NCBI GenBank assembly: GCA_037431425.1
Contig: GCA_037431425.1_4129.2
Source: a phage
Reading direction: 5' to 3' (one strand)
DNA length: 64,000 nucleotides
The first letter of the stretch is position 1. Every line of letters starts with the position of its first letter. This document shows, piece by piece, positions 21,221-61,450 of this stretch. The notes beneath the pieces are model-generated. The model ran no database searches and was not told the DNA's origin. It saw nothing but the letters and a program-made list of their open reading frames with translations. Position numbers and translations under genes: made by a program.

Positions 21221-24200
21221 TTACTTAACTATTAATATTTTTTGAATATCATTACCACGAACTCGTAGACTGTTAGTATACACAGAAAGGTCTATTGTAT
21301 AACTATTTTGAGTATAACGTTTAAACTTATCATAACCGCCCAAATTAATTCCGTTGAAAGAATATGTAGTATCATGTTTGAAATCGTGTTCTGCACTGTA
21401 CATTACTCCACGGAGTAAGTTGTTTGTATTTCTAACTTCAACTTTTTCATATCCAATCGATATAATGTCACTCTTGTTAGCAGCGGAGCCTGATAACACA
21501 TTATTTCTAACATTATAATGGCTTACGGAAAGAGGTTGTGCTACATAAGTTGTGTTTTCTTCACTAATGGTTGTTATGTTAGTGATGGTAGCGTCAGCCA
21601 CATCAATATACATACTATCAACCATTGGATATTCATACACCCACACACCTTCATTATTTTTTGTCGGTTTGATATCTTTCGCATCATATTCAATCACGTT
21701 AATTTCTAAACAATCCGGCATTTTAGTTCTTACTAATTCACTAAGAACACCTTCCCCTGTAATTGGTAGATTATAACCGTTGTCTATAGTAATACCATCA
21801 TCATTAAATATTTCATTTGATACAACCCAAACATCAACATCATCAGGTGTTACTCCGTCATTATACTTACCACCATTTAAAGTAGTATCATAAAAAACGT
21901 CATAATTAATCACATCAATGGTGTAATTTCTGTTTTGCTCATATAATTTAATATCACCCTTGGTAAATTCTGGGTCAGCAAATGTTCTAACACGAACAAT
22001 GTTCAATGCAAGATGTTGTACTGGCTGATTCAGTTGTCCAAGTGTGATGTTATCATATCGAAGAACATTACCAGAACTATCAACCAACTCAATTGTTTCT
22101 TTTCCTGTAGTTCTTACAGTGAATAGAATAGGAGTTGTATTATGTTTGATATTAGACACACGTAATATGGTTTCCCATGTACGATTTTGATATCGAATAA
22201 AATCTTCACCATCCGGCGTGAAAATCATCACCTTATCACCATCAGATAAGTCACTGTCAACGATTTCAGCCTCAGTTAAGCTATTAATAGAACGTACACG
22301 ATAGAAATATTTTTCTTCAAACGGTGATGCCGTTTTATTAATATCATGTTCAATCTTAGCATATGAAGGAATACTAACAATTGCTTCTGTATGTTTATAT
22401 GGGTTGATAATTGCCATACCCTCGGTTTTATATCTGCTATTATTACGCAATTGCACTAGTGATTCAGTATCAAATCCATAACCATCAACAGTGAATCTAA
22501 TATGCCCAACTGCACGACTAGCTGGATTTATTTCAGATATATCGATAATATAAGGATCAACTTCGTCATCTTTAACTTCCCATTTGATAGCTGAAGTTTG
22601 TGATTCTAATGCAAGGTTGTCAAATGCATTCATATCATTGAAGAACTTAGCTTCAGCAATACTATCAATTATATATTGATAATCCGAATACATAGGGTTA
22701 TTTTGATCTTGTGGTAAATCATCTAGATTTATTTCAGCAAGTTTAATCATTTCACCATTAGTAATGAAATAATCTTCCATGAAATCATCAATACTTTTAT
22801 CATCTGGTATACTTTGGTATTCACCATTGATATTTAAGTAGACATGTTTTCTTGGCATCATAGTAATAGCATAGATATCAATAGGTGTTTTTGAAAGAAT
22901 TTCTTCTGCTTTTTCATACATATCAGTAGAGTCTTTATCAAACAACCCTCTCATGGCTGCCAGTACATGGACCGCATCGGAATAGAAACGTGTATCACCA
23001 CCAATTTCATCATAACGATAAACATATACACCGTATTCAACTTCAAGTTTCACTTTAATATCATGTTCAGATGCATCTGGATATTTTTCTGTAATAAAAG
23101 AAATATATTTTTCATATAATTCTTTACTTATTTCAAAATATCCATAGTTATAATCATTACTTGAAGAAAAACCTAATGGTAGTCTAGTACTTGGGTTATC
23201 ATTATAAACCAAACCACTAAATCCACAGCCAACCTCATCATGAATCTTATCATCACTGATATCTTTATAAAGTTTCAAACGGTTTGCTAATGTATTGTAC
23301 TGAACATAGTGTCGAAGGTCAGTAAACATTTCATTATGCGTTGATTCGTTATAAATGCGTTCAAGTGTAGCAGTAAATTCATCAGTTGCTTCTAAATCAT
23401 CAGCATGTTCTTTATACCACTGGTTTACACCATTTGCAGTTCCTAGTGTTACATCTAATTCTGGATAGTACGTTTGTAATAGATACGCATTAACCAAGTC
23501 AAATGATTGTTCATTATACACAGGGTAAGAATATATATAACGTTGTAATTCATAGGTATTAACAGAATCTTTTTCATTTGATTGATACTTATTATTAACA
23601 CTAATCAACTCATTAATGTTTGCCAAATCTTTATTCGGTTTACATTGAATATTATCATAATGCATAATAATATCAATTTCTTGAAATCTTCTATTTGGTG
23701 CAATAAAATCACTAGGCAGAGAACCTACTTTCTCCCATTTTTTAGTGGTTTCATTATATTGAGCGTACTCATAATCCCAAATATCCTTTTCAGTTTTAAC
23801 CCACGAACCATCAACAAAAATATACCCATTAGGATCTAAATCATTACAAAGACCTTTGATTAAGTCATCATCAGACGTTTTTTGTTCTATCTGTGAACGG
23901 ATTTTTGTACGATATGGTTTCACCTCTTCAAAGTACTCAACAATTTGGTTAATCAAATTATCATTTGAATAGTTTTGTACCAAAGATTGTTCCAAACCAA
24001 CAATATAGATATAGGATGTTTTAAATACCCAATCAACAACACCCTGTTCTACGTGTACATATTTGACCATATCAAAAACAATTTCACTTTGGTGTAAATC
24101 GAAAGAATTTTTTAGCAAAGCAAGTGCTTTTCTAATATTAATTTCACGATTACTAAGTGAACCGTCCTCATTATGAACATTATAATCTACATAAAACAAA

Positions 24201-27200
24201 TCGTTAAGCTCAATAGTACTACGTTGTCGCCCAATAGCTTTCCAATAAATTGAATCACGTGATTGAGATTTGATATATAAAGTCCAAATGTTTTCACTAT
24301 CTGTGACTCTAATTATATCACCAACTTGATAGTTTTTAGCATTTGCTTCTTCTAAACTTATCTCTTGGATGTAAGCAGTTTTGCTATCATACCCAACATC
24401 ATACCAATCTGCATAAGACCAGTATTGAGTCATATCTAATGATGTTCCGAGTGATTCAACATAATCCGATTGCTTAATCATTTTATGTTGTCCTTCACCT
24501 TTATTTTCTAAAGTTATAGTAACAACACTACCTGCATTAGCTGGACTATTCATTAACTGAATATATCCGTTTTCATCGAAGTGAATAAAATAAACAGCAC
24601 TAGTTGATAATGGAGTCGGTAGATAACCGCTAGAACTTAAAATAACAGCGTCATTTTCTTTAAATTTATCCTTTTCAACTGCAATTACAAGTTCATTATT
24701 ATAAGTTAATACACGGAACGAAACCTCATTAGGGTTAACTTCTGTAGTTTTAACATTAAACACATCTTCCATAACAACACTATTAGTAGTTATGTTTTGT
24801 GATCTATAATAATTATTTGCACTTTCTACAAAGTTTCTACGTGCCTCTATTATATTCTGGAACCAAGTTTTATTAGAGCCTAAACCAGTGCCAACTTCTG
24901 GATATAATAAATCTACAACCTTACCTGACTTCGTAGTTTCTTGACCAATTAGAGAGTTCCACATAGAGTCCCAAATTAGTGGGTTAAAATTGTAACTTTC
25001 ACCCTCTTTACAAAGTTGATATTGATCATGTTTAACAACTTCTGTATTGTCCATATAGTAAGAAATAGTCAAAACACTAGTATCATCATTAACTTCAAAC
25101 TGCATATTACTAAGAATAAAAGAGTTTTCATTAATTGGTGCGAACCAAGGAATGTTCAACTGTGATGGATCTTTAATAATACGTGCAATGTCAGTACATG
25201 ATTTTGTTCTGGTATGAATAGGTGGTACATAAATTGTATCACGTACCCAGAAATAGTATTTTGTTACATAACTGTCAGTGGAGCTATCATATTCCAAAAA
25301 TGTACTATAATTATCTTCAAGTGCTGTTCCACTTGGAAGATACATATTATTATTTTTGTTTTTCTTAGCAACATCTTTACAGTACTTATCCCAGTTATAT
25401 GGTTCTACTGGTGAACAAACCCATTCCAACACATCAATAGTACTATGTGGCAACAAACGACCCCAGTTGTAACGTTTATATTCATTGGTTGCGTCAATAT
25501 CAACATTTCCATCTGCATCATAAATGGCACGAGTATAATCCAAATAAAAAGCGGTGCTAGTGTTCCACCATACTTGACCAACTTTTTCAGCACCCCACGC
25601 CTGAACCAATTCGCCATTACTATTATATTGAGCAGGGTCGATTGGTGAAGTATATGTTACGTTTTGCATTGCTGCACCAGGAATAACACCATTAATTGGG
25701 TCATAAACATTTAGATATAATGCAGTAATGTTTGTACGTTCATCATATGTAGTTGGACGTTCAAACAAAGTACTTTGTGGTGCTTTAAAACTATATTTTT
25801 TATCAATATATGCTTGACGCTCTTCAGTACTCACAAAACGCGAAACATAACGATACAAACGAGGGCGTGTATCTGGGTCAGTAAATTCGATATTAATTGA
25901 AGTATCAAATGGAACCACCATAACTTTGGAATCATCCCCAGCAGTATAATATTGACTTTCTACTGTTAAAGTATCTGGCATAAAGTTAGTTTCGTCCACA
26001 AAATAATAGTAATCACCATCTTCAAGAGGGATATCATCAGATAGAGTTACTTTACAGAATTTCTCAGCGTAAACATCTGTGGTTTCGATTGGTGTAATAG
26101 AAACCATTTTAACATTAGTGTCAATTAATTCAAAAATGTTCCATAACCCATTTCCATCTTTGAACATCCATACTGATTCAGGATTTTCACCTTTACCATT
26201 GATATACAACATACGGTCATTGAATGCAGTACTGAAATCTTTCGTAGTATAAGATACTTCATCTAATGTAACTGGACCAATATCAGGCAGTTGGATGTGT
26301 TCACTTCTACCACTACGCATTGGGAAAGAGAATTTACCATTTGGACGAGTAATCCATTGTGGGTCTTTTCCTTGTTCACCAAAGAATACAATATTGTTTC
26401 CATTGCCATTTGATGTTGCATTTTCATCAAAAGACATCATTTGTGGCTGCTGCTTAAATTGGTCATTAATCAATTTAAATTGAAGGTTTTTCTTTCCATC
26501 GATGTTACCATATGTACCAACTTTAAACGCCCATTCTTGTAATGCTTTATATTCATCAGTATCATAGGATTTAGAAACACGAAGAACACGTTCTAAAACT
26601 TGGTTTGTACCTTTGTCATGAATAAATCCTTTATAGAAATCAACACGACTTACATCACTACTAATCATACGTTGTAGATAATCACGAGATTGATAACCAA
26701 TCAAATGGCTAGACAATTCTTGTAATTGTACATCGCTAACGGGATGTTCATTGTCATAGTAATGTTGAAAATCTGTTACTAGAGTTTCAAATGATGGTAT
26801 TGTACCAGATTCCAAAATAATAAAACCAGGTGCTTGTAATCTACCAGTCCATGAACCAGTAATGTACCCATACATTTTAATTAGTTCCTGGATAGAACCA
26901 TAAGTTGGTTGATAGATATAATCACCAAAAATAGTCTTATCATCAAATATAACAGCATGTTCATATGAACACAAACTTAAACGGATTAATGCAATACGCT
27001 TATTAGAATCGGTTGTTCTAACAGTGAATATATTACCAATACGTGAAGTTTCGATTTCATATTGACGAATACCTTGGTTATTATCATCAAGCAATGACCA
27101 CACACCACCATTATTTTGTGTAATAGACTGTACTGAACCAAAATCCGAACCAAACTTAGCATTTGCAGCACTTGGTGTACAAGAGATAAATTCGCCAGTT

Positions 27201-30200
27201 ACCAGAGGACTCTGACTCCATATCACAAAATCTTTAGCAATAGTGTGCCAATCTTGCTGAATACCATCTTGATTAACATCTTCGAAAATCCAGCCATGTT
27301 CTTTAAGATACTCACCATATCCACAAATAAAAGTGTATACTTCTTGATAACTATTGAAAATAGTCCCATATTCAATAGAAGCCTCAGACTTCCATTCATT
27401 ATAATGAACAATATTACGGTTTTCCAATTTAAGAGTTACTTTTCTTCCATTTTTTACTGGAAGTTTATATTTAAATTTCGCACCAACCAAATCATATCCA
27501 TCAATTTGATATGCACTACCATTCCATGTAATTTTGATGGCACTCATCTGTTCATCGCGAATGTTATTCGAACGCACCAGACCAATCGTTTGGTTTTCTT
27601 GTGAAATAAGACCAAATGATTTAGCGTTGAATGTTAATTGATCTGCTTTAGTAAAGCCACCAATTTTATGTCCCACATTTACGTAAGACGAACGTACAAC
27701 ATCTCCATATTTTGTAGTAATATTTTTATTTTGATACATCAAATAATCACTAACAAACATTTGATATCCAATTGTTCTTGTGTTATCTTCACCATGAACA
27801 GTTGTGTTTTTATCAAAATTCACACGATTGCGGGTATCCCCGTACAGAAATTGTTCACCAGTGGTGATAATTTCTTTCAAATTGTCATTACGGGTATCCC
27901 AATAATAGTTGGCAAATTGTGCAGGTTTAGCTTTATACAAAAGTAACATTTGGTCATATGCAAACAATGTGGTGTTCATATACGTAAATTCCATATCACC
28001 CATGTCGCCATACGCCCAAGGTTCTGCTCGGTGAACTAAAGATCCAGACACTAATCCTAAAACTTCAGGAGCAATATACTCAACCACACAAATATCTACA
28101 CCGGATGATGTTTTATTTCCAGTTTTAGTAATTTTAAATGGTTGTACACCAAATCTTTTATATTTGTCATACTGACCACGGCGGTCGCCATATAAAATTG
28201 TCCCAGTACTACTATCGCCGATTGTATCATTTACATCCCAAAGTCCACTAGGAACCAAATCACCTTGTTCATCAGTTACAAGTGCCTCATATACATAAAC
28301 TACATCACCATCACGTTCACCAACTTGGACAGCGGTTGGTTCATACTCTTGGTTCCACCAAGTAGGACGTTGTGTAAACCCAAACATTTCCCATGGATGT
28401 GTAGCAGGGCGATATGTACCATATTGATCAGTATAGATTGCACGCCATGAACCACGAGCAGGAATTTCAGTACTTTTACCATCAACAACATAATAGGTTC
28501 CAGTATAGTTCCATGTTCTCCAGTTATTAGGATCATAATCATGTGTGCTATTACTAATACCATTAGATGCAGTGAAGTTAATATAACCACGTAATAGAAG
28601 TGTTTGTTTTTCTTCTGCACTATATTCAGTTTTTGTAAAATATGGCGTAGGGAAAAGATCATCACTATTCAATACAGGGACATAATCAACATCTTTGAAT
28701 TTATTGTCAATACTATTGAAAATTCTATTTTCAAGTTCATATACAACATCATCCATTTTATCAACACCATTGATAACACGGTATGCTTTAGAAATAATAC
28801 CAGTATGGCTGATATTATAATAGCTAGGTTTACTACCAGCAGTTAGGAATGTTGCTTTCTCAGGAACGTATGCTTGTAGAATACCTAAAAACTGTGGAGT
28901 TGGTGGTATAAATGCACGAATAAGACCAGATGTACTACCCACATTGTCATAATAGAATGGGAATGAACTATCACGACCCATATTAATAGTTGCCAAAATA
29001 GAATCAACGATGTTAGCTGCACTATTTTGTAAAAAGTTAGTTGGGTTTTCATTGTACATTCTAAGCATTTGTGTATTAAATTTATTAATGAATCTGAAAT
29101 ATTCAGATTGCATAAACATAGTTGCTTCAAATAAATCAATATCTTCATTTGCAGTATGAGCCATCAATGGGAGCATAGAAGCTTCATTTTGAATAATTTT
29201 AGTTCCTACTCCATTATTCACTAATCCCTTAGCTAAACGTTCTTCATAATCGTTGAAGTCATCAGCATAACCACTAGTGATATTCTGTTGAATAATATCC
29301 TGAAAATGAAGAGTATAGTCTCCTTGATTAATATATATAATATTGGAGTTATATGGGTTATTTTGTAAGTTAATTGGAACTTCATATGCACCTAATTCTT
29401 TATCAGGTGTTACAGTACTGCTATAAGTTCTAATTTGAATAACAGAATCATCATCCAATTCAACACTGTTATCGATTGTGATACTTTGCACTTGACCTTT
29501 TAATACATTCTTGGTATATTTGGAGATATTAACACCATCAACAACAACTTCAATAATATCAGAGTCATTGTCTAAAACTTTTTGTGCCAATTCAAAAGTA
29601 TGGTCATATTTTAAAACCTGAATACCATCACCACTAATTTGATGCCAGTCCAAATATGTTTCACGTTCAGCTTTATAGTACTGATATGTTTTATCAACTT
29701 CGATGACATATGCATACATACCCTCGACTGGTTCTTTAAACAGTTCCATATCATAAACAGAACTAAAGACTCGATACATATCAGTACGTTTGACTTGAGG
29801 TGTCTGTTTTACAAATTGTTTAGAGAATTCTTTTGAACGCACCCAATCAGTTTGAAGATTCATTTTATTATTTTCATCAATGATGTTATAATAATACAAA
29901 CCACCGATTTCAACTTCAACACCAAGATGGTCATATGTATAACGTTGTGATTGTAAAAAGTTTTCATAAGTGTAATAGTTATAATCACCAAGTTCAATGT
30001 TATACCCATATACACTATCAGCCGCGTAGTTATAGTTTATTTTAAATCCAAATAATGGTGAACCTTTAAATGTACTGGATGGGTACGTGGTGCTGTTATC
30101 TAGTTTGATTCCATTACGATCATAAAGTTGGAATTGAGGAAAGACGTTAACACTTGGCTTCGCCTGTGCACGAACCCATAATGTTCCATTCCAATACATA

Positions 30201-31204
30201 GAATTATTGCCGTACTCATTTCCTTTTGTGACCAAAACTACGTCACCATTTTGTGGTTCACCACTTGGACGGGACTCAGTTTCTTCATTTGGATCTAGTG
30301 CTAAGCCATAAACGCGTGTACCATCTTGCATTTTTTTAACATACACTTTATAAATTCTATTGTTTTCACCATCATTACCAATACTGGTGAATAGAATACG
30401 CATACCATCTTGTGGAATAATACCATCAATGCGAATACCGCTATTGACATCTTTTTGAATAATATCTTCAGGTTTGATACTATCAGAAAAAAGTTCAACT
30501 GTTCCACGGAATTTTGTACCGTAGTTAATTAGCTCGATATTTTTATTATATTCGATAATTGGTGCACGAGCACGAATAAAACGAGAATCTTGCATTAGCT
30601 CTTCAGTCAAGATAGAACCGTCTTCTAGTGTTTCACCTAAAGTATACCAAAAGTTTTGCAAAGACCATGTATTACCATTAAGTGCTCCACGTTCCATTAC
30701 AATGTAATCAGGTGTAATGATATTATAAGAGTTTTTGGTATCCCAAAGATACGAACTAAAATTGTTCATTTTATTTGGGTTAATTGCAGGAGTCCATGCA
30801 TAAAACTTACCGTTAAATAAACGACTTTCATTATCGGTTAGTGCTCCGTAATGACTCATGTATCCAACAAGATCATCATAAAATTGAATTGAACGAATTG
30901 TTGAATCATCATTTTTAGAGACATAAGCAGTGGACAACTGATATAGTTGACGTGCAACAGAACTTTCATGCAAGAAGATATTACCAGCGGCAGCCGGAGA
31001 ACCCATGTCACCAATATAACCGTCAACCAATTCGTTTTCAGCCGGATTAAACCATTGTTGAATAACATCATCACTGACTTTTTGAATATCTTCTAAGCCT
31101 TGCATCCACTCAGGCAATCTTTTGATAAAAAGCTTTTTCTGTACTGCTTCAGCCATCTGTGTAGGTTGAAACTTAAAATTATTAGTCATTTTTCTGGACT
31201 CCAT
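21221..31204 (-). CDS. Giant virion protein (3327 aa), possibly an expanded gp7-like baseplate wedge protein
   Basis: Uninterrupted 10-kb ORF; downstream of the gp25-like and gp6-like genes, the slot gp7/gpI occupies in other contractile-tail baseplate clusters; GGAG sits before the sixth codon (ATG at 31189), so the true start may be there. Confidence 0.6.
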   Translation of the reverse strand: MESRKMTNNFKFQPTQMAEAVQKKLFIKRLPEWMQGLEDIQKVSDDVIQQWFNPAENELVDGYIGDMGSPAAAGNIFLHESSVARQLYQLSTAYVSKNDDSTIRSIQFYDDLVGYMSHYGALTDNESRLFNGKFYAWTPAINPNKMNNFSSYLWDTKNSYNIITPDYIVMERGALNGNTWSLQNFWYTLGETLEDGSILTEELMQDSRFIRARAPIIEYNKNIELINYGTKFRGTVELFSDSIKPEDIIQKDVNSGIRIDGIIPQDGMRILFTSIGNDGENNRIYKVYVKKMQDGTRVYGLALDPNEETESRPSGEPQNGDVVLVTKGNEYGNNSMYWNGTLWVRAQAKPSVNVFPQFQLYDRNGIKLDNSTTYPSSTFKGSPLFGFKINYNYAADSVYGYNIELGDYNYYTYENFLQSQRYTYDHLGVEVEIGGLYYYNIIDENNKMNLQTDWVRSKEFSKQFVKQTPQVKRTDMYRVFSSVYDMELFKEPVEGMYAYVIEVDKTYQYYKAERETYLDWHQISGDGIQVLKYDHTFELAQKVLDNDSDIIEVVVDGVNISKYTKNVLKGQVQSITIDNSVELDDDSVIQIRTYSSTVTPDKELGAYEVPINLQNNPYNSNIIYINQGDYTLHFQDIIQQNITSGYADDFNDYEERLAKGLVNNGVGTKIIQNEASMLPLMAHTANEDIDLFEATMFMQSEYFRFINKFNTQMLRMYNENPTNFLQNSAANIVDSILATINMGRDSSFPFYYDNVGSTSGLIRAFIPPTPQFLGILQAYVPEKATFLTAGSKPSYYNISHTGIISKAYRVINGVDKMDDVVYELENRIFNSIDNKFKDVDYVPVLNSDDLFPTPYFTKTEYSAEEKQTLLLRGYINFTASNGISNSTHDYDPNNWRTWNYTGTYYVVDGKSTEIPARGSWRAIYTDQYGTYRPATHPWEMFGFTQRPTWWNQEYEPTAVQVGERDGDVVYVYEALVTDEQGDLVPSGLWDVNDTIGDSSTGTILYGDRRGQYDKYKRFGVQPFKITKTGNKTSSGVDICVVEYIAPEVLGLVSGSLVHRAEPWAYGDMGDMEFTYMNTTLFAYDQMLLLYKAKPAQFANYYWDTRNDNLKEIITTGEQFLYGDTRNRVNFDKNTTVHGEDNTRTIGYQMFVSDYLMYQNKNITTKYGDVVRSSYVNVGHKIGGFTKADQLTFNAKSFGLISQENQTIGLVRSNNIRDEQMSAIKITWNGSAYQIDGYDLVGAKFKYKLPVKNGRKVTLKLENRNIVHYNEWKSEASIEYGTIFNSYQEVYTFICGYGEYLKEHGWIFEDVNQDGIQQDWHTIAKDFVIWSQSPLVTGEFISCTPSAANAKFGSDFGSVQSITQNNGGVWSLLDDNNQGIRQYEIETSRIGNIFTVRTTDSNKRIALIRLSLCSYEHAVIFDDKTIFGDYIYQPTYGSIQELIKMYGYITGSWTGRLQAPGFIILESGTIPSFETLVTDFQHYYDNEHPVSDVQLQELSSHLIGYQSRDYLQRMISSDVSRVDFYKGFIHDKGTNQVLERVLRVSKSYDTDEYKALQEWAFKVGTYGNIDGKKNLQFKLINDQFKQQPQMMSFDENATSNGNGNNIVFFGEQGKDPQWITRPNGKFSFPMRSGRSEHIQLPDIGPVTLDEVSYTTKDFSTAFNDRMLYINGKGENPESVWMFKDGNGLWNIFELIDTNVKMVSITPIETTDVYAEKFCKVTLSDDIPLEDGDYYYFVDETNFMPDTLTVESQYYTAGDDSKVMVVPFDTSINIEFTDPDTRPRLYRYVSRFVSTEERQAYIDKKYSFKAPQSTLFERPTTYDERTNITALYLNVYDPINGVIPGAAMQNVTYTSPIDPAQYNSNGELVQAWGAEKVGQVWWNTSTAFYLDYTRAIYDADGNVDIDATNEYKRYNWGRLLPHSTIDVLEWVCSPVEPYNWDKYCKDVAKKNKNNNMYLPSGTALEDNYSTFLEYDSSTDSYVTKYYFWVRDTIYVPPIHTRTKSCTDIARIIKDPSQLNIPWFAPINENSFILSNMQFEVNDDTSVLTISYYMDNTEVVKHDQYQLCKEGESYNFNPLIWDSMWNSLIGQETTKSGKVVDLLYPEVGTGLGSNKTWFQNIIEARRNFVESANNYYRSQNITTNSVVMEDVFNVKTTEVNPNEVSFRVLTYNNELVIAVEKDKFKENDAVILSSSGYLPTPLSTSAVYFIHFDENGYIQLMNSPANAGSVVTITLENKGEGQHKMIKQSDYVESLGTSLDMTQYWSYADWYDVGYDSKTAYIQEISLEEANAKNYQVGDIIRVTDSENIWTLYIKSQSRDSIYWKAIGRQRSTIELNDLFYVDYNVHNEDGSLSNREINIRKALALLKNSFDLHQSEIVFDMVKYVHVEQGVVDWVFKTSYIYIVGLEQSLVQNYSNDNLINQIVEYFEEVKPYRTKIRSQIEQKTSDDDLIKGLCNDLDPNGYIFVDGSWVKTEKDIWDYEYAQYNETTKKWEKVGSLPSDFIAPNRRFQEIDIIMHYDNIQCKPNKDLANINELISVNNKYQSNEKDSVNTYELQRYIYSYPVYNEQSFDLVNAYLLQTYYPELDVTLGTANGVNQWYKEHADDLEATDEFTATLERIYNESTHNEMFTDLRHYVQYNTLANRLKLYKDISDDKIHDEVGCGFSGLVYNDNPSTRLPLGFSSSNDYNYGYFEISKELYEKYISFITEKYPDASEHDIKVKLEVEYGVYVYRYDEIGGDTRFYSDAVHVLAAMRGLFDKDSTDMYEKAEEILSKTPIDIYAITMMPRKHVYLNINGEYQSIPDDKSIDDFMEDYFITNGEMIKLAEINLDDLPQDQNNPMYSDYQYIIDSIAEAKFFNDMNAFDNLALESQTSAIKWEVKDDEVDPYIIDISEINPASRAVGHIRFTVDGYGFDTESLVQLRNNSRYKTEGMAIINPYKHTEAIVSIPSYAKIEHDINKTASPFEEKYFYRVRSINSLTEAEIVDSDLSDGDKVMIFTPDGEDFIRYQNRTWETILRVSNIKHNTTPILFTVRTTGKETIELVDSSGNVLRYDNITLGQLNQPVQHLALNIVRVRTFADPEFTKGDIKLYEQNRNYTIDVINYDVFYDTTLNGGKYNDGVTPDDVDVWVVSNEIFNDDGITIDNGYNLPITGEGVLSELVRTKMPDCLEINVIEYDAKDIKPTKNNEGVWVYEYPMVDSMYIDVADATITNITTISEENTTYVAQPLSVSHYNVRNNVLSGSAANKSDIISIGYEKVEVRNTNNLLRGVMYSAEHDFKHDTTYSFNGINLGGYDKFKRYTQNSYTIDLSVYTNSLRVRGNDIQKILIVK

Positions 31205-34732: not shown

Positions 34733-34834
34733 AATTTATTCCTTTAAATCAGTAAAGTACTAGTTCAGTACTGGGAATTATATAGAAATATTTATTCAAA
34801 AAGAAAAGCACCCCGAAGAGTGCTTTTTTAATAT

Positions 34835-35230
34835 CTACAAAGACGATACTGAATATGTTGCCATTCTATTATTACTTCTTGCATCAAATACAATAGAAAG
34901 TTCCTCTACAGTATTCAATACTACATAATGCAATACTATGTTCATTTGATATCCATATTCTATCCTTGAAATTTGTATTTTTTTAAGATTCAAACGTGGA
35001 TCTAAAGAAATAATCCTTCTGGCATCTGCTTCCAAAAGGTTCATAGTATTATAACCTTCCAATTCAAACAACAAATCCCATGCAATAAAACCATAGTCTG
35101 CATCAAATGCCCTTTCGCCTTTTTTTGTATTGAAATGGTTCATTAAATCCTGACGAACCAGTTCAGTATCGTACAATGTTTCCGTTCTACCCACAACTGG
35201 TGTGGAGAAACCTTTAAAAACAACTGCCAT
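34835..35230 (-). CDS. 25: Baseplate wedge protein, T4 gp25-like (131 aa)
   Basis: FDADYGFIAWDLLFE...LLEADARRIISLDPRLNLKKIQI parallels T4 gp25 FDPEFGCDLSDQLFE...TADTVERNIESAVRNYEPRIDKLAV; RBS AAGGA. Confidence 0.6.
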   Translation of the reverse strand: MAVVFKGFSTPVVGRTETLYDTELVRQDLMNHFNTKKGERAFDADYGFIAWDLLFELEGYNTMNLLEADARRIISLDPRLNLKKIQISRIEYGYQMNIVLHYVVLNTVEELSIVFDARSNNRMATYSVSSL

Positions 35231-35243
35231 TGTCTATTTCCTT

Positions 35244-35732
35244 TTATACGGATTCGACGATTCGTGCCATCTTTTCCGCTCTAGAAGTGGTTTGTTTATA
35301 CCAGGTACTATCACGCAATTCTTTACCAGCAGTTTTATAATCAGCATTACCCAATGCGGTCATTGCTTTTTTAAATTTCAAAACTTTGGCTTTGCCCATT
35401 TGGAACACCATCATCCACAAAACACGCTGTACTTGTACTGGTGCAGTCATGCCAAATTGCTCATAAATTGATTTTGCGTCATTGTACGCGGCCTGAGCAT
35501 CTTTAATAAGAAGTTGTTCAGCTTGTTCTTCAGTTAAGCCATTTTTGAAGTTTTCACCAGGAAGAACTAAATGACCATAACCAATAGTATCAAGTCCCAA
35601 GCTATCTTTATATACCCAAAACTTATCATTTTTAAAATAACCAAGTTTTTTCTGATAAGCAATAGTTCCTTCAAATTCTTTGATTTCATTAAAAAATTGC
35701 TCATCTGTATTTTTAATTTCCCATTTACTCAT
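35244..35732 (-). CDS. T4-lysozyme-type (GH24) lysozyme, stand-alone (162 aa)
   Basis: Catalytic-region motifs EFEGTIAY ... YKDSLGLDTIGYGHLV match T4 lysozyme E11/D20/T26 context; ~55% identical by eye to the C-terminal domain of the adjacent spike gene. Confidence 0.8.
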   Translation of the reverse strand: MSKWEIKNTDEQFFNEIKEFEGTIAYQKKLGYFKNDKFWVYKDSLGLDTIGYGHLVLPGENFKNGLTEEQAEQLLIKDAQAAYNDAKSIYEQFGMTAPVQVQRVLWMMVFQMGKAKVLKFKKAMTALGNADYKTAGKELRDSTWYKQTTSRAEKMARIVESV

Positions 35733-35768
35733 AAAGACATCCTTATATTATTTATAGTACTAAAATAT

Positions 35769-38432
35769 TTATTGACATGCCTCTAAACGACGAGCCATTA
35801 ATTCAGCACGGCGTGTTGTTTGACGATACCAAGCCGAATTTCGTATTTGAGCAGCAGCTTGTTTATAGTTTCCTTTGGCTAATTCAGACAACATGGTCTT
35901 AAATTTAAGGACACCCCCTTTACCCATCTGGAATACCATTTGACATAGAACTTGTTGTGCCATGTAAGGAGTTTTCATGTTATATGATGCATAAATTGCC
36001 TTAGCATCATAAATTGCTTTACTACTGTCTCTAACAAGCATATCATTGGCTTCTTGTTCAGTTATACCTGACGAAAAGTTCTCACCGCTAACAATTAAGT
36101 GACCGTATCCAATAGTAGGGAATCCACGACTATCTAAGTAACGCCAGAATTTACCATTACGGTAATATCCTTTTGCTTGTTGATATTGTATTGTACCCTC
36201 ATATTCTTTTAATTCCGAAATAAACTGAGCATCACCTGGGACGATTTTCCAATCTATTGCTGTTTTATCTACGTTACCAACATTATATGTAGGTTGTTCA
36301 ACTGGCGTTGATGATACACTTCTACGTTGTGTTCTTCTTTTGCGTGGTACATGTCGTGAACCACGCTGAGAATAACCAGTCCCAATTGTTTTAATTTTAG
36401 TAGTTACTACTAATTCATCACTATCTACTGACGGTTGCACAACTGCTTGCGGTGACGATTGATTAGTTGCTTTTCCAGCAATCAAGGTTTTATTAGCTGC
36501 ATCTGCTCCAATTCCAGTTTGTGATGCATAGAACAATCCCGGATCAACTGAACCACTAAACCCAAGTACATTTGCAGACGTTACACGTATTTCAAATTGA
36601 ATAACACCTTTAGCTTTACCTATAACTTGTCCTTTTTGAACAACATCTTTATTCAATAAATCAGTTTGAATATTATAAAATATAGATTTATATCCAGATT
36701 TGTGTTGTATTAAAATACCACCATTGGTGATTGAAACAACACCACCATCTGGTGCAACAACATCACCTTTGCATTGTATTTCCCATCCAGAACGATCTGC
36801 TTTTCCACCGTTTTGTGTTGGAATACCTTTCCCCCAGTAACCATATTGACGAATTGTCCCACTACATGGCATATACATATGTAAACCTTCATATGTGATA
36901 CTATATCCAGTCATCCCAGCATCAGATACCATCAAATCTTGTGTTTGTACTTGTTCTGTTTCAGGGGTATAGTTAATAAACTGTATAGCTTCAGTTTCTT
37001 GAGCTTCTGGAATTTCTGGTGTAACATCATTAGCAGGTTGTGGCTGTACTGGTGATTCACTTGAAATCTTCCCACCGCCTTGTCTCGGTGGTTCAACAGT
37101 ACTACCATGTTTTTCTGCATTAACCCAAGCAGAAATGTCATGAATGTGTTCATTTAGACCCGTAGATGGTGTTTTAAAGTTAGGAGCAGTAAATTCAGCA
37201 GTTCCGCTGTTTCCTCCACTGTTAACAGTCAATGTTTGACCACCACCACTAATTATTGCTGATGATGAACCAATTAAATTTGCGGAAGTAGAAGCAGATA
37301 TAGATGCATTTGAACCTGCGGTAATATCAGTACTACTACCACTTTGCATACGCAATGATGCAGCAGTAACTAATCGGAGATCTGCACCAGAATTAACAAC
37401 AACCTGACCACCAACTTTTGCATCAAGTGCACCAATTAAATCCAACTTAGTATTTGCACCAACACGTGCATTGAAATCTTGACCAGATTCAATATTATAT
37501 GAACGACCAGCAATCATATTAATATCCTGACCAGCACGAATATTGATATTCTTATCACAATGCATATCAATATCACCTTCACCTGTAAATTTTATGCGTG
37601 CTGTTCCGTCACGGTTAATTAACAGAACGTCGCCTGTTGCTTCTGACAGTAATAGCTGTGCACCACTGCGAGTTTTTATAACAACTCCTTCATTTTTACG
37701 GGAACCAACACGTGTATCGTTTACTGGGTTATTAAATTGTGTATCCTGATAACCATCTGGATCTTGATCCCATGTAGGTGCGGTTAATTCCTCTTCAGTA
37801 TATCCATCATCGATAATAAAACTATTTCCACGTGGTGACGACATGCCATATACAGTACTGGTTGTCTGGCGGGTGCTACTGCGATTAGCAAGACCTGCTT
37901 CTTCATCATATAAAAGGTTTTGTTTTTTCAAACCAGCAATGATTGGAACGTTTGCATACTTATCTTGCATGTCCGTTGTGATTGTGTTACGATCATAATC
38001 AGTAACAGGGATAGGCATATCCGTTCCGCTATAACTACTAACTTCAGTTGCCATGCCTGGAACCATAGTATTCATGCGATGGTCATATACACAGCCAATC
38101 CAATATGCCTGAAATGTACGTGCCTGTGCGAAAATCACAATAACAGTGCACCCAACATCAGGCGGTACAGCCCAGAATCCATAGCCTTTGGGATATTGAC
38201 CATATGCATCGGCACTTGGAATACCTGGTGTTTTGCCAGCAAATGGTGACATATATGATGCTTCAATCCATGATTCTTTGGAATTTTTATCACTTTGTGA
38301 ACCTTGTATCCAAACTTTCAATTTTCCTGATTTAGTTGGATCTCTATTATCCATAACCGTTGCTAACTGTGGGTAAGATGGGTCAAAACGACCCAACTGT
38401 TGTTGTGCATACTTTTTACTTGTATCTGCCAT
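35769..38432 (-). CDS. Baseplate central spike, gp5-like (887 aa): OB-fold N-domain, beta-helix, M23-like domain and C-terminal lysozyme domain
   Basis: N-terminal VMDNRDPTKSGKLKVWIQGSQSD...GFWAVPPDVGCTVIVIF (gp5/VgrG-type); repetitive beta-helix segment; LytM-fold block ILIQHKSGYKSIFYNIQ...KGQVIGKAKGVIQFEIR; C-terminal EYEGTIQY...LDSRGFPTIGYGHLI lysozyme. Confidence 0.7.
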   Translation of the reverse strand: MADTSKKYAQQQLGRFDPSYPQLATVMDNRDPTKSGKLKVWIQGSQSDKNSKESWIEASYMSPFAGKTPGIPSADAYGQYPKGYGFWAVPPDVGCTVIVIFAQARTFQAYWIGCVYDHRMNTMVPGMATEVSSYSGTDMPIPVTDYDRNTITTDMQDKYANVPIIAGLKKQNLLYDEEAGLANRSSTRQTTSTVYGMSSPRGNSFIIDDGYTEEELTAPTWDQDPDGYQDTQFNNPVNDTRVGSRKNEGVVIKTRSGAQLLLSEATGDVLLINRDGTARIKFTGEGDIDMHCDKNINIRAGQDINMIAGRSYNIESGQDFNARVGANTKLDLIGALDAKVGGQVVVNSGADLRLVTAASLRMQSGSSTDITAGSNASISASTSANLIGSSSAIISGGGQTLTVNSGGNSGTAEFTAPNFKTPSTGLNEHIHDISAWVNAEKHGSTVEPPRQGGGKISSESPVQPQPANDVTPEIPEAQETEAIQFINYTPETEQVQTQDLMVSDAGMTGYSITYEGLHMYMPCSGTIRQYGYWGKGIPTQNGGKADRSGWEIQCKGDVVAPDGGVVSITNGGILIQHKSGYKSIFYNIQTDLLNKDVVQKGQVIGKAKGVIQFEIRVTSANVLGFSGSVDPGLFYASQTGIGADAANKTLIAGKATNQSSPQAVVQPSVDSDELVVTTKIKTIGTGYSQRGSRHVPRKRRTQRRSVSSTPVEQPTYNVGNVDKTAIDWKIVPGDAQFISELKEYEGTIQYQQAKGYYRNGKFWRYLDSRGFPTIGYGHLIVSGENFSSGITEQEANDMLVRDSSKAIYDAKAIYASYNMKTPYMAQQVLCQMVFQMGKGGVLKFKTMLSELAKGNYKQAAAQIRNSAWYRQTTRRAELMARRLEACQ

Positions 38433-40704: not shown

Positions 40705-41019
40705 TTAGCCTATATTTCGAGTACCATTAAGATAGTTTTGTACTCTTTGATTTGCTGGTATTCTAATTGTTACCCCACTTTTAAAATTATATATTGGGTC
40801 TTCTCCTAATATGTCTGGATTTAATAACGCAAAGATATAATATAATCGTTCATTTCCGTACATTTCGTATGCCAAACGCCATGGTTGGTATTCATATTTC
40901 AATGGTATCTCATAAAAATCATCAGTATCTGCCGGAATGATGTCACGTGGTAAATTATACCCAAGATACCATGTTTGTTTCACCTTAGCATAAGGTGAGT
41001 ATTGACTATAGTTGGACAT
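40705..41019 (-). CDS. LysM-like small baseplate protein (104 aa), gp53/gpX-like
   Basis: WRLAYEMYGNERLYYIFALLNPDILGEDPIYNFKSGVTIRIP resembles LysM and T4 gp53 (ANAIYGNPQLYWVLLMCNDNYDPYY); RBS GGAGGA; 1-nt stop/start overlap with upstream gene. Confidence 0.5.
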   Translation of the reverse strand: MSNYSQYSPYAKVKQTWYLGYNLPRDIIPADTDDFYEIPLKYEYQPWRLAYEMYGNERLYYIFALLNPDILGEDPIYNFKSGVTIRIPANQRVQNYLNGTRNIG

Positions 41020-54368: not shown

Positions 54369-54376
54369 TATAAATA
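54369..54376 (+). promoter_or_regulatory. T4-type late promoter box (TATAAATA) upstream of scaffold gene
   Basis: Exact TATAAATA 47 nt upstream of ATG at 54424; overlaps a 10-bp inverted repeat AATATCTGTA/TACAGATATT (54373-54400). Confidence 0.45.
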
Positions 54377-55577: not shown

Positions 55578-55585
55578 TATAAATA
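55578..55585 (+). promoter_or_regulatory. T4-type late promoter box (TATAAATA) upstream of major capsid gene
   Basis: Exact TATAAATA 45 nt upstream of ATG at 55631. Confidence 0.5.
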
Positions 55586-58926: not shown

Positions 58927-58965
58927 TAGATAAATATCTCCATATTAATGATGGAGATTGAATCT

Positions 58966-59274
58966 ATGTCACAAATATGTTATGTTATCATAAATTCTGC
59001 GTGGCCTGATTATGTTAAGATTGGGTTCACATCAAAATCCGAAATGACTGAGCGTTTGAGAACATATCAGACAGCTACACCTTTCAGAGATTTTGAGGTA
59101 TACCATGAGGTGTATTTTGATGATGCACGTTTGGCTGAAAAAGAAATTCATAAAAGACTAAAGCAAATGAATGCAATTAGACAACCGAACACTGAGTGGT
59201 TTAAAATGTCTAAAAAGATCGCCGCAAACATTATTGACTCCATAAGGGATGATATGGATAATGATATGTTATAG
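58966..59274 (+). CDS. T5orf172-domain (GIY-YIG superfamily-like) small protein (~102 aa)
   Basis: ICYVIINSAWPDYVKIGFTS...RL..YQT...EWF pattern typical of the T5orf172 domain; start taken at third ATG (58966), 9 nt after GGAG; track start 58948. Confidence 0.45.
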   Translation: MSQICYVIINSAWPDYVKIGFTSKSEMTERLRTYQTATPFRDFEVYHEVYFDDARLAEKEIHKRLKQMNAIRQPNTEWFKMSKKIAANIIDSIRDDMDNDML

Positions 59275-60928: not shown

Positions 60929-60940
60929 GGAAATGTGCAA

Positions 60941-61450
60941 ATGCAACTAACTAATTTTAAGATGTACGATAAAGAAGATGGAAATCCAAATTCTTTGTAT
61001 ATGATGTCCGATGAAGGCATGGATTGGTATGAATCTCGTGGTCTGTTTGACATTAACAAAGCCAAATTTATGTATGATGCCAATGGATTGATAGTTTCTG
61101 CATCATATGACATTTATGATCTAGTACCTTTGGGGTTTAGTGTTTCTGAAATTGAGTACGATGGTGACGTTAACAAACTTTATGGTATGATTTATGATGG
61201 TAAAACTATCAAGGAGTATGTAGAAACCAAAGAAGAAAAGATTGAACGTCTTAAGATTGAATTGGAAAAATTAAAATACTCTGCAATTCAACAGCTTGGG
61301 CATTTGAAAACAGCTATGGATCTTGAGTTAGCATCAGATGAAGAAGCTGTATTGTTTGCAAAATTAAAAGAGTATGTAACACAATTGTCGTCAATTAAAC
61401 CAGTAGATATGGTCAAAAAAACATTTTCATTTCCAGTCAAACCTGAATAA
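60941..61450 (+). CDS. Tail fibre assembly chaperone-like protein (~169 aa)
   Basis: C-terminal KEEKIERLKIELEKLKYSAIQQLGHLKTAMDLELASDEEAVLFAKLKEYVTQL resembles Tfa/gp38-type chaperones; follows a fibre gene; track start GTG at 60935, ATG at 60941 has RBS AAGGAA. Confidence 0.5.
   Translation: MQLTNFKMYDKEDGNPNSLYMMSDEGMDWYESRGLFDINKAKFMYDANGLIVSASYDIYDLVPLGFSVSEIEYDGDVNKLYGMIYDGKTIKEYVETKEEKIERLKIELEKLKYSAIQQLGHLKTAMDLELASDEEAVLFAKLKEYVTQLSSIKPVDMVKKTFSFPVKPE

Follow-up and report, generated by a model that had tools for sequence, protein, structure and literature searches.

A predicted central spike of a Rak2-like jumbo phage carries an apparently dead LytM-fold domain ahead of its C-terminal lysozyme

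The 64,000-nucleotide (nt) stretch of phage DNA analysed here (the window; contig GCA_037431425.1_4129.2 of assembly GCA_037431425.1) encodes an 887-amino-acid (aa) protein that reads as the central spike in the baseplate of a Rak2-like jumbo myovirus. From its N-terminus, the protein runs through a gp5/VgrG-type OB fold, an insert of ~130 aa, a beta-helix, an HxH motif, a first linker, a domain of the M23/LytM fold, a second linker and a GH24 lysozyme (Table 1). The M23-like domain is almost certainly not an enzyme and represents a degenerate LytM domain (dLytM) of the kind found in EnvC or DipM, while the lysozyme domain is predicted to be an active GH24 muralytic enzyme. A free-standing lysozyme encoded beside the spike gene most likely descends from an old duplication and acts as an accessory enzyme. 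Taken jointly, this account of spike, dead LytM, active lysozyme and old-duplicate accessory enzyme is the explanation we favour and consider probable. An earlier reading made from the sequence alone had named both genes, and open reading frame (ORF) calling recovers them on the minus strand, at 887 and 162 aa. At the nucleotide level, the 3.2-kb region that holds them is 99.6% identical to Escherichia phage ph0011 and 82–89% identical to more than 30 other genomes of ~350 kb (~87% to 121Q and PBECO4). The window belongs to a Rak2-like jumbo myovirus that infects E. coli (genus Asteriusvirus).

Profile and model comparisons confirm that the central block of the spike is related to the M23/LytM family. 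The segment ILIQHKSGYKSIFYNIQ...KGQVIGKAKGVIQFEIR lies within it, at aa 573–616. Pfam Peptidase_M23 (PF01551) matches aa 551–608 with 18.1 bits in the full-length protein and 23.6 bits with the isolated block, both below the gathering cut-off of 28.7 bits, and hhalign pairs the block profile with one canonical M23 sequence over 47 columns at a probability of 29%. Across the family, 26 of 28 diverse orthologs match Pfam M23 at E <= 0.1 (best 6.9e-11). A profile of 28 orthologs retrieves from the PDB almost exclusively M23/LytM proteins, including LasA (9e-07), SpoIIQ (2e-06), zoocin A, DipM (1e-04), Csd2, ShyA and EnvC. Moreover, an AlphaFold2 (AF2) model of aa 495–650 is confident, with a predicted local distance difference test score (pLDDT) of 89.5 and a predicted template modelling score (pTM) of 0.81. 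Searched with this model, Foldseek returns top 50 PDB matches that are all M23/LytM at a probability of 1.00; first among them are DipM and EnvC, which are catalytically inactive.

An exhaustive HMMER scan of 1.84e9 protein representatives with the block alone recovers nine proteins, of which seven are spike-sized orthologs, one (P0002) is an 84-aa fragment and one (P0008) is a spurious repeat protein; at this single-sequence sensitivity, no canonical M23 protein is found. The scan thus places the dLytM block always in cis with a lysozyme. A separate homolog search with aa 421–725 gives zero matches, compared with 121 for the full-length query, a difference attributed to a word-index artefact of the low-complexity linkers and not to absent relatives.

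The active site of the family is missing from this fold. M23 catalysis is defined by an H(x)nD motif, an HxH motif and a further catalytic His ~30 residues before HxH (PMC9662197). In an alignment of 79 spike orthologs sharing 37–91% identity, which underlies all residue counts given here, position 547 is Arg in 63 sequences (R547 in the window) and His in five, and position 551 is Ile in 43 and Asp in two (E551 in the window). In an alternative register, the H(x)nD candidates are G549 and Q553, and no conserved His lies upstream of H577. Position 587, opposite the catalytic His, is Gly, Asp or Asn and never His (N587 in the window). The loop that should carry the first HxH His is deleted, which leaves position 612, occupied by Glu, Gln, Thr and others (Q612 in the window). 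Overall, the whole domain has one conserved His, H577, where four His and one Asp are needed for M23 catalysis; this residue occupies a structural position that is conserved in inactive LytM factors too, and the window copy of the block contains two His residues in total. The sequence-only reading had described a LytM-fold block with substituted zinc and catalytic residues, and both fold and residue loss are borne out. Its suggestion of dual bond specificity is not supported, given the single conserved His. Its other suggestion, a binding-only M23 module, is supported by the loss of the catalytic residues, with binding as a presumed function.

Selection on the domain is strong. Measured against phage SHEFM2K, the ratio of non-synonymous to synonymous substitution rates (omega, dN/dS) is 0.034 for dLytM and 0.037 for the lysozyme domain, versus 0.23 for linker 1, and column conservation across the clade is 0.67 for dLytM versus 0.65 for the lysozyme. 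The domain is therefore under selection and not decaying, which identifies it as a conserved pseudoenzyme, a degenerate LytM.

The lysozyme of the spike is terminal, as the sequence-only reading had it, and not internal as in T4 gp5. Both it and the free lysozyme score above the PF00959 cut-off (44.8 bits for the spike, 37.4 bits for the free protein). Residues E745, D767 and T773 of the spike align to E11, D20 and T26 of T4 lysozyme, and the triad is kept in both lysozyme copies of the window. Among the spike orthologs, E745 and D767 are each present in 78 of 79 and T773 in 54 of 79. At the T4 Thr26 equivalent (aa 773; 36114..36116, minus strand), Asp is found in 18 of the 79 orthologs, for example those of Munch and Hallingskeid, a substitution that might alter the catalytic mechanism in those lineages.

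The N-terminal half carries the identity of the protein as a central spike. Its fold assignment is based on profile matches; the AF2 model of aa 1–462 was left out of the fold search. A profile of the first 460 residues from 17 orthologs, searched against the PDB, matches central-spike proteins only, namely VgrG from type VI secretion systems (T6SS), gp5/VgrG OB-fold proteins, T4-type gp5 and PVC8 (lowest E value 2.4e-06). In these alignments, the OB fold lies at aa 19–116, paired with the OB domain of T6SS VgrG, and the helix at aa 252–400. Together with Pfam scores above the cut-offs for both regions, these matches uphold the OB-fold N-terminus and beta-helix proposed earlier. Additionally, orthologs of the spike have been detected by mass spectrometry (MS) in virions of phAPEC6, CBB and GAP32. 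The insert between the two folds (aa 119–250) has the highest conservation of the whole spike (0.77), matches no Pfam family or PDB entry, and is poorly folded as a monomer in AF2 (pLDDT 26–50). It fills the slot that holds the lysozyme in T4 gp5.

Where the beta-helix ends, all 79 orthologs without exception keep H429 and H431, and 73 of them keep H442. P2 gpV and related spikes bind iron at their tip in a histidine cage built from three copies of HxH, and in tail fibres this motif holds the trimers clamped in register (10.1101/2023.02.25.529910). By analogy, the HxH motif of the window spike is a putative metal (Fe) histidine cage or clamp placed after the beta-helix. It is not a terminal apex of the P2 sort, because 456 residues of the 887-aa spike come after it. 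The linkers that follow differ in character. Linker 1 is variable, and linker 2 contains a conserved motif, ELVV..T....SIGSGYSQRGS..VPR, at aa ~671–697 (36342..36422, minus strand), in which G691 is invariant and which is followed by a variable, strongly basic run (RKRRTQRR in the window). This motif may serve either as a site of processing or as a docking strand.

Table 1. Coordinates of the spike domains and of neighbouring features in the 64,000-nt window
Feature	Coordinates	Strand	Evidence and remarks
gp53-like baseplate wedge gene, upstream of spike	40705..41019	-	Pfam Phage_gp53 22.7 bits; PHROG 7145
Central spike gene, 887 aa	35769..38432	-	ORF call; ortholog of 121Q gp587, CBB_240, GAP32 gp234, RaK2 gp078, phAPEC6 gp241
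gp5/VgrG-type OB fold, aa 19–118	38079..38378	-	Pfam Phage_base_V aa 23–116, 29.5 bits, cut-off 23.8
Conserved insertion of ~130 aa, aa 119–250	37683..38078	-	Missing from VgrG in profile alignments; conservation 0.77
Triple-stranded beta-helix region, aa 251–420	37173..37682	-	Pfam DUF2345 (VgrG-type) aa 280–326, 31.3 bits, cut-off 30.7; AF2 pLDDT 76–90
HxH motif H429-I-H431 at end of beta-helix, putative Fe histidine cage	37140..37148	-	Invariance in 79 orthologs; precedent P2 gpV, tail fibres
Linker 1, aa 447–505, P/Q/E/S-rich	36918..37094	-	Conservation 0.55, omega 0.23; pLDDT <50 at start of block model
Degenerate LytM (M23-fold) domain, aa 506–640	36513..36917	-	Profile against PDB, Pfam M23, AF2, Foldseek, residue spectra, omega 0.034
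Linker 2, aa 641–726	36255..36512	-	Conserved ELVV...SIGSGYSQRGS..VPR motif and variable basic run
C-terminal GH24 (T4-type) lysozyme domain, aa 727–887; catalytic E745, D767, T773	35772..36254	-	Pfam Phage_lysozyme (PF00959) aa 765–882, 44.8 bits; PDB matches T4 gp5 and T4 lysozyme
TATAAATA, exact T4 late-promoter consensus (tentative)	35749..35756	-	In the 36-nt gap before the free lysozyme gene, followed by an AAGGA ribosome-binding site
Free-standing GH24 lysozyme gene, 162 aa	35244..35732	-	ORF call; Pfam Phage_lysozyme 37.4 bits; ortholog of LysUE1, 121Q gp586, CBB_239, RaK2 gp073
gp25-like baseplate wedge gene, directly downstream of free lysozyme	34835..35230	-	Pfam GPW_gp25 36.1 bits; PHROG 43

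The free lysozyme and the spike lysozyme are paralogs of long standing. The free protein aligns to spike aa 728–886 without gaps at 52% identity over 159 aa (E = 3e-58), close to the ~55% estimated by eye in the sequence-only reading, and relative to T4 lysozyme both copies share a 13-residue insertion between the catalytic Glu and Asp as well as two deletions. In a lysozyme tree of ten phages from six lineages, the spike-borne (S) and free (F) copies form sister clades that each roughly track phage phylogeny, with bootstraps of 87/100 for S+F, 78 for S and 48 for F. The spike lysozyme of Vibrio phage 2.275.O, which has no F gene at the locus, branches below the S/F split. This topology therefore points to one old duplication with both copies retained. 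A recent duplication or gene conversion between the lysozymes was considered and rejected on the separate clades that track phage phylogeny. Accordingly, of the duplication or domain shuffling suggested earlier, the paralogy stands on the S+F node and the duplication is old, so that recent shuffling does not hold. The copies are also closer to each other than to the T4-type reference, as that suggestion entailed, at ~51% identity between S and F versus ~31% for either against T4 e. Within-phage S/F identity is somewhat higher in GAP32, CBB and Yen9-04 (57–62%).

The free lysozyme is most likely a soluble, late-expressed accessory muralytic enzyme and not a virion component, because it has no hydrophobic segment, a lytic ortholog exists, and it is absent from virion proteomes. 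Specifically, no hydrophobic or transmembrane (TM) segment and no signal sequence is found in the protein (maximum hydropathy 0.79). LysUE1, a 95%-identical ortholog, has been purified and lyses E. coli permeabilised with ethylenediaminetetraacetic acid (PMC12805682). In the virion proteomes of CBB, GAP32, RaK2 and phAPEC6, the free lysozyme is not detected in any of the four, compared with three of four for the spike. Supplementary MS tables record presence or absence without peptide positions. The 36-nt gap before the gene holds TATAAATA, tentatively a late promoter, and at this place the motif is conserved in Asteriusvirus and RaK2 only. Window-wide, TATAAATA is not enriched, with six occurrences observed versus 10.3 expected. 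It also occurs at 54369..54376 and 55578..55585, both on the plus strand and 45–50 nt upstream of two other ORF starts.

The doubt raised earlier over a lysis role for the free lysozyme is well placed. No holin or spanin is seen in the window, in agreement with the sequence-only reading, and the free lysozyme gene is flanked by baseplate genes; in the 121Q genome, candidate lysis genes lie at a distance of ~60–70 kb. A third GH24 paralog occurs in each genome. In 121Q it is the 308-aa gp532 (L012 9192..10118), which combines a hydrophobic segment at the N-terminus with a LysM-like region and with a GH24 domain that is 32–37% identical to the other two lysozymes. It lies ~60 kb from the spike in 121Q, and an Rz-like spanin is annotated at gp511 (L012 339..713), ~9 kb beyond gp532, both outside the window. 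The CBB paper names this third paralog as a predicted endolysin (PMC5259590). This third paralog (TM, LysM and GH24), encoded outside the window, is probably the main endolysin.

By analogy with T4 gp5, tail contraction would push the spike through the outer membrane, and three tethered lysozymes would then cut glycan strands locally so that the tube can pass. The enzymatic cargo would be held C-terminal to the helix by flexible linkers, as in 'evolved' T6SS VgrGs, and the dead LytM would leave peptide cross-links uncut. Within this scheme, dLytM may serve as a non-catalytic cis partner of the lysozyme, whose degenerate groove would dock or regulate the lysozyme or hold the stem peptides of peptidoglycan. 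Degenerate LytM domains generally act by protein–protein contacts, usually with cell-wall hydrolases, through the degenerate groove (PMC9662197). The docking or regulatory cis role is favoured because dead LytM domains bind partners in this way and because the block is always in cis with the lysozyme. An architectural role, mimicry of EnvC or NlpD, and residual peptidase activity are all ranked below it. A version in which dLytM recruits the free lysozyme is disfavoured as well, since the Vibrio relative keeps dLytM without a free copy.

If the M23-like domain were a peptidase with non-canonical residues, the spike would cut both glycan and peptide bonds. Such a reading could appeal to the retained fold and scaffold residues (W550, H577, E614, R616 and the FE(I/V)R motif), to known dual-enzyme tail proteins such as phi29 gp13, which combines a lysozyme with M23, and to the canonical M23 domain at the same position in the distant relative P0099. 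It is nevertheless very improbable, as the single conserved His occupies a structural position and the window block has two His where H(x)nD, HxH and a further His are needed, the HxH loop has been lost, and the closest structural matches, DipM and EnvC, are inactive. Those same matches are the starting point for a mimic of EnvC/NlpD that, in the periplasm, would bind and switch on host amidases (AmiA/B/C) or other autolysins, so that stems are removed by host enzymes and glycans by the phage lysozyme. dLytM factors do activate amidases via the degenerate groove (PMC9662197), Gram-negative hosts use this regulatory system, and the purifying selection on the domain is strong. However, identity to EnvC or DipM is only ~20%, the constant cis pairing with the lysozyme is explained more simply by a cis role, and three copies acting for seconds at one point are a weak way to recruit septal amidases, which leaves this possibility quite unlikely. 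We also consider unlikely a broader form of mimicry, in which a viral counterpart of EnvC, NlpD or DipM acts where the spike penetrates by switching on amidases or lytic transglycosylases of the host, or switches on the phage's own tethered lysozyme as DipM does SdpA/B; if true, it would be the first virion-borne regulator of cell-wall hydrolases. A purely architectural domain, which during assembly packs the cargo onto the beta-helix or hub, or in the virion blocks the active site of the lysozyme (like the gp5 linker in T4), and has no role after ejection, has a small but real chance of being correct. The LytM folds of SpoIIQ and Csd2 serve only as protein–protein interfaces, the conserved linker 2 motif could act as a docking strand, and the ~60-residue linker 1 is long enough to fold back along the helix. 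This architectural role overlaps with the favoured explanation, but conservation at the level of an enzyme suggests a specific ligand over simple packing.

A further alternative concerns the free 162-aa lysozyme, which could be a structural baseplate component or an assembly factor instead of a soluble lysis enzyme. Its gene sits within the baseplate operon, separated from the spike gene by 36 nt and from the gp25-like gene by 13 nt, in a position conserved across genera; in the T4 map, genes 5.1–5.4 take this slot. Against a structural part stand its absence from the four virion proteomes, the lack of the gene in the Vibrio relative with an otherwise complete spike, the four genes that separate it from the spike in RaK2, its possible late-promoter-like motif, and the solubility and activity of the purified ortholog. 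With both sides counted, a structural or assembly role is a minor contender.

Several points weigh against the composite explanation and temper its strength. The AF2 model of aa 1–462 is poor (pLDDT 59.8, pTM 0.37). The registers of the first and last M23 motifs differ between methods, MAFFT --add among them; none gives the His/Asp set, and the disagreement is immaterial to the loss of the active site because the domain has only one conserved His. The proteome absence of the free lysozyme is weak evidence, as MS of RaK2 missed the spike too and the free lysozyme would be small and of low copy number, and a gene located inside the baseplate operon is compatible with a role in structure or assembly as well. 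Finally, the trimeric state, the binding of Fe, the place that the cargo takes in the virion, possible proteolytic processing of the spike and the partner of dLytM enter the account as inferences.

Distant relatives of the spike suggest where the dead domain came from. Among metagenomic spikes with the same OB and beta-helix core (P0099, P0115, P0094 and P0125), the C-terminal cargo is a canonical M23 domain with a trypsin-like protease, a GH19 chitinase-like domain, or a lysozyme alone. In P0099, the M23 domain occupies the same relative position as dLytM, retains the motifs HWGID, YRHI and GPHLHLE, scores 62.8 bits with Pfam and is followed by the trypsin-like protease. The spike family therefore swaps C-terminal enzyme modules, and these arrangements suggest that a modular 'evolved spike' family exists in phages. 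On the same comparison, the dLytM of the Rak2 clade probably descends from an active M23 cargo domain.

Known systems share parts of this architecture. T4 gp5 and T4 e offer an OB fold, a GH24 lysozyme and a beta-helix on the spike, a paralogous free lysozyme in the genome and the gene order 53-5-...-25/6. However, the T4 spike follows the order OB–lysozyme–helix, its tip is capped by the PAAR protein gp5.4 and it has no M23 fold, whereas the window spike follows the order OB–insert–helix–HxH–dLytM–lysozyme; no PAAR protein is found among ten neighbouring ORFs of at least 90 aa. Evolved T6SS VgrGs carry C-terminal effector domains, as in V. cholerae VgrG-3 with its peptidoglycan-degrading domain. 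Their OB fold and beta-helix align with those of the window spike and enzymatic cargo follows the helix in both, but VgrG is a T6SS component with a fused gp27-like N-terminal module, whereas the spike described here is a phage virion protein that lacks this module and adds the HxH clamp and the dead LytM. In P2 gpV and phi92 gp138 likewise, an OB fold and a beta-helix are followed by a strictly conserved HxH; there the Fe-loaded motif lies within ~15 residues of the C-terminus and forms a sharp tip, whereas the HxH of the window spike resembles the internal clamps of tail fibres as much as an apex. For the M23 fold, EnvC, NlpD, DipM and SpoIIQ also lack the zinc and catalytic residues, are kept under selection, and in known members bind and regulate hydrolases. 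They are cellular division or sporulation proteins at ~20% identity, whereas the window domain forms part of a phage spike that also carries a lysozyme. Conversely, phi29 gp13 (lysozyme and M23), Tal2009, and tape-measure and hub proteins are tail or ejection proteins that contain an M23 fold, in some cases paired with a lysozyme, but these are active enzymes that keep H(x)nD and HxH, and the window domain keeps neither motif.

The closest published counterparts are RaK2 gp078, CBB_240 and GAP32 gp234, orthologs with 58–71% identity and the same domain order as the window spike. The RaK2 paper (2013) places gp078 among the largest baseplate lysozymes with a 'very unusual domain composition', counts three similar lysozymes in that genome and gives the similarity of ORF073 to ORF078 as 66% (PMC3622015). 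The CBB paper (2017) describes the gp5 N-terminal OB domain, a central M23 match (E = 6.5e-4) that recurs in Rak2-like phages, the lysozyme at the C-terminus and, next to the spike, the T4-type lysozyme CBB_239, and states that confirmation as structural exists only for the spike and the gp25-like protein (PMC5259590). The overall architecture, including the M23 match and the adjacent lysozyme, is thus already published for both phages. These papers take the M23 block as a possible peptidase or find no database match for it, and they report neither the lost catalytic residues nor the invariance of HxH nor a phylogeny of the paralogs. New here are the M23 domain as a conserved pseudoenzyme, the invariant internal HxH, the modular cargo including an active M23, and the phylogeny of the spike-borne, free and third lysozymes. 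The finding of a dead M23 domain appears to be new. In the literature library searched, no paper couples a degenerate LytM to a phage spike, and no high-resolution baseplate structure of the clade was found.

Peptidoglycan hydrolases carried by virions are explored as a source of antibacterials and play a central part in the passage of contractile tails through the cell wall. Existing annotations imply a two-enzyme weapon for a widespread jumbo-phage spike, whereas the data presented here describe one enzyme and a conserved pseudoenzyme, a status that changes which spike fragments are worth expressing. The impact is limited in that the architecture and the activity of the free lysozyme are already in print. 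A dead LytM on a phage tip raises a testable question about its role, given that characterised dead LytM domains regulate hydrolases. More broadly, phages, like the T6SS, hang swappable cargo after the spike helix, with lysozyme, M23 plus trypsin, or GH19 in different relatives.

The surrounding genes follow a T4-like baseplate operon order, running from the gp53-like gene through a 749-aa virion protein, the spike and the small lysozyme to the gp25-like and gp6-like genes. The position of the free lysozyme in this operon is conserved across genera, and the locus varies between relatives in other respects. In 121Q, an HNH/group-I-intron-associated gene splits the gp25-like and gp6-like genes (L011 34101..34865) and is absent from the corresponding interval of the window (34733..34834). 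In RaK2, four small inserted genes separate the spike gene from that of the free lysozyme (L004 6375..7868), and in Vibrio phage 2.275.O (L002) the free lysozyme gene is absent at the locus. Just downstream of the baseplate wedge genes, a single ORF of 3327 aa (21221..31204, minus strand) encodes an ortholog of a 382-kDa virion structural protein. Close to the right end of the window lie a T5orf172-domain protein of a GIY-YIG-related, homing-endonuclease-like family (58948..59274, plus strand) and a tail-fibre assembly protein of the lambda gpK type (60935..61450, plus strand).

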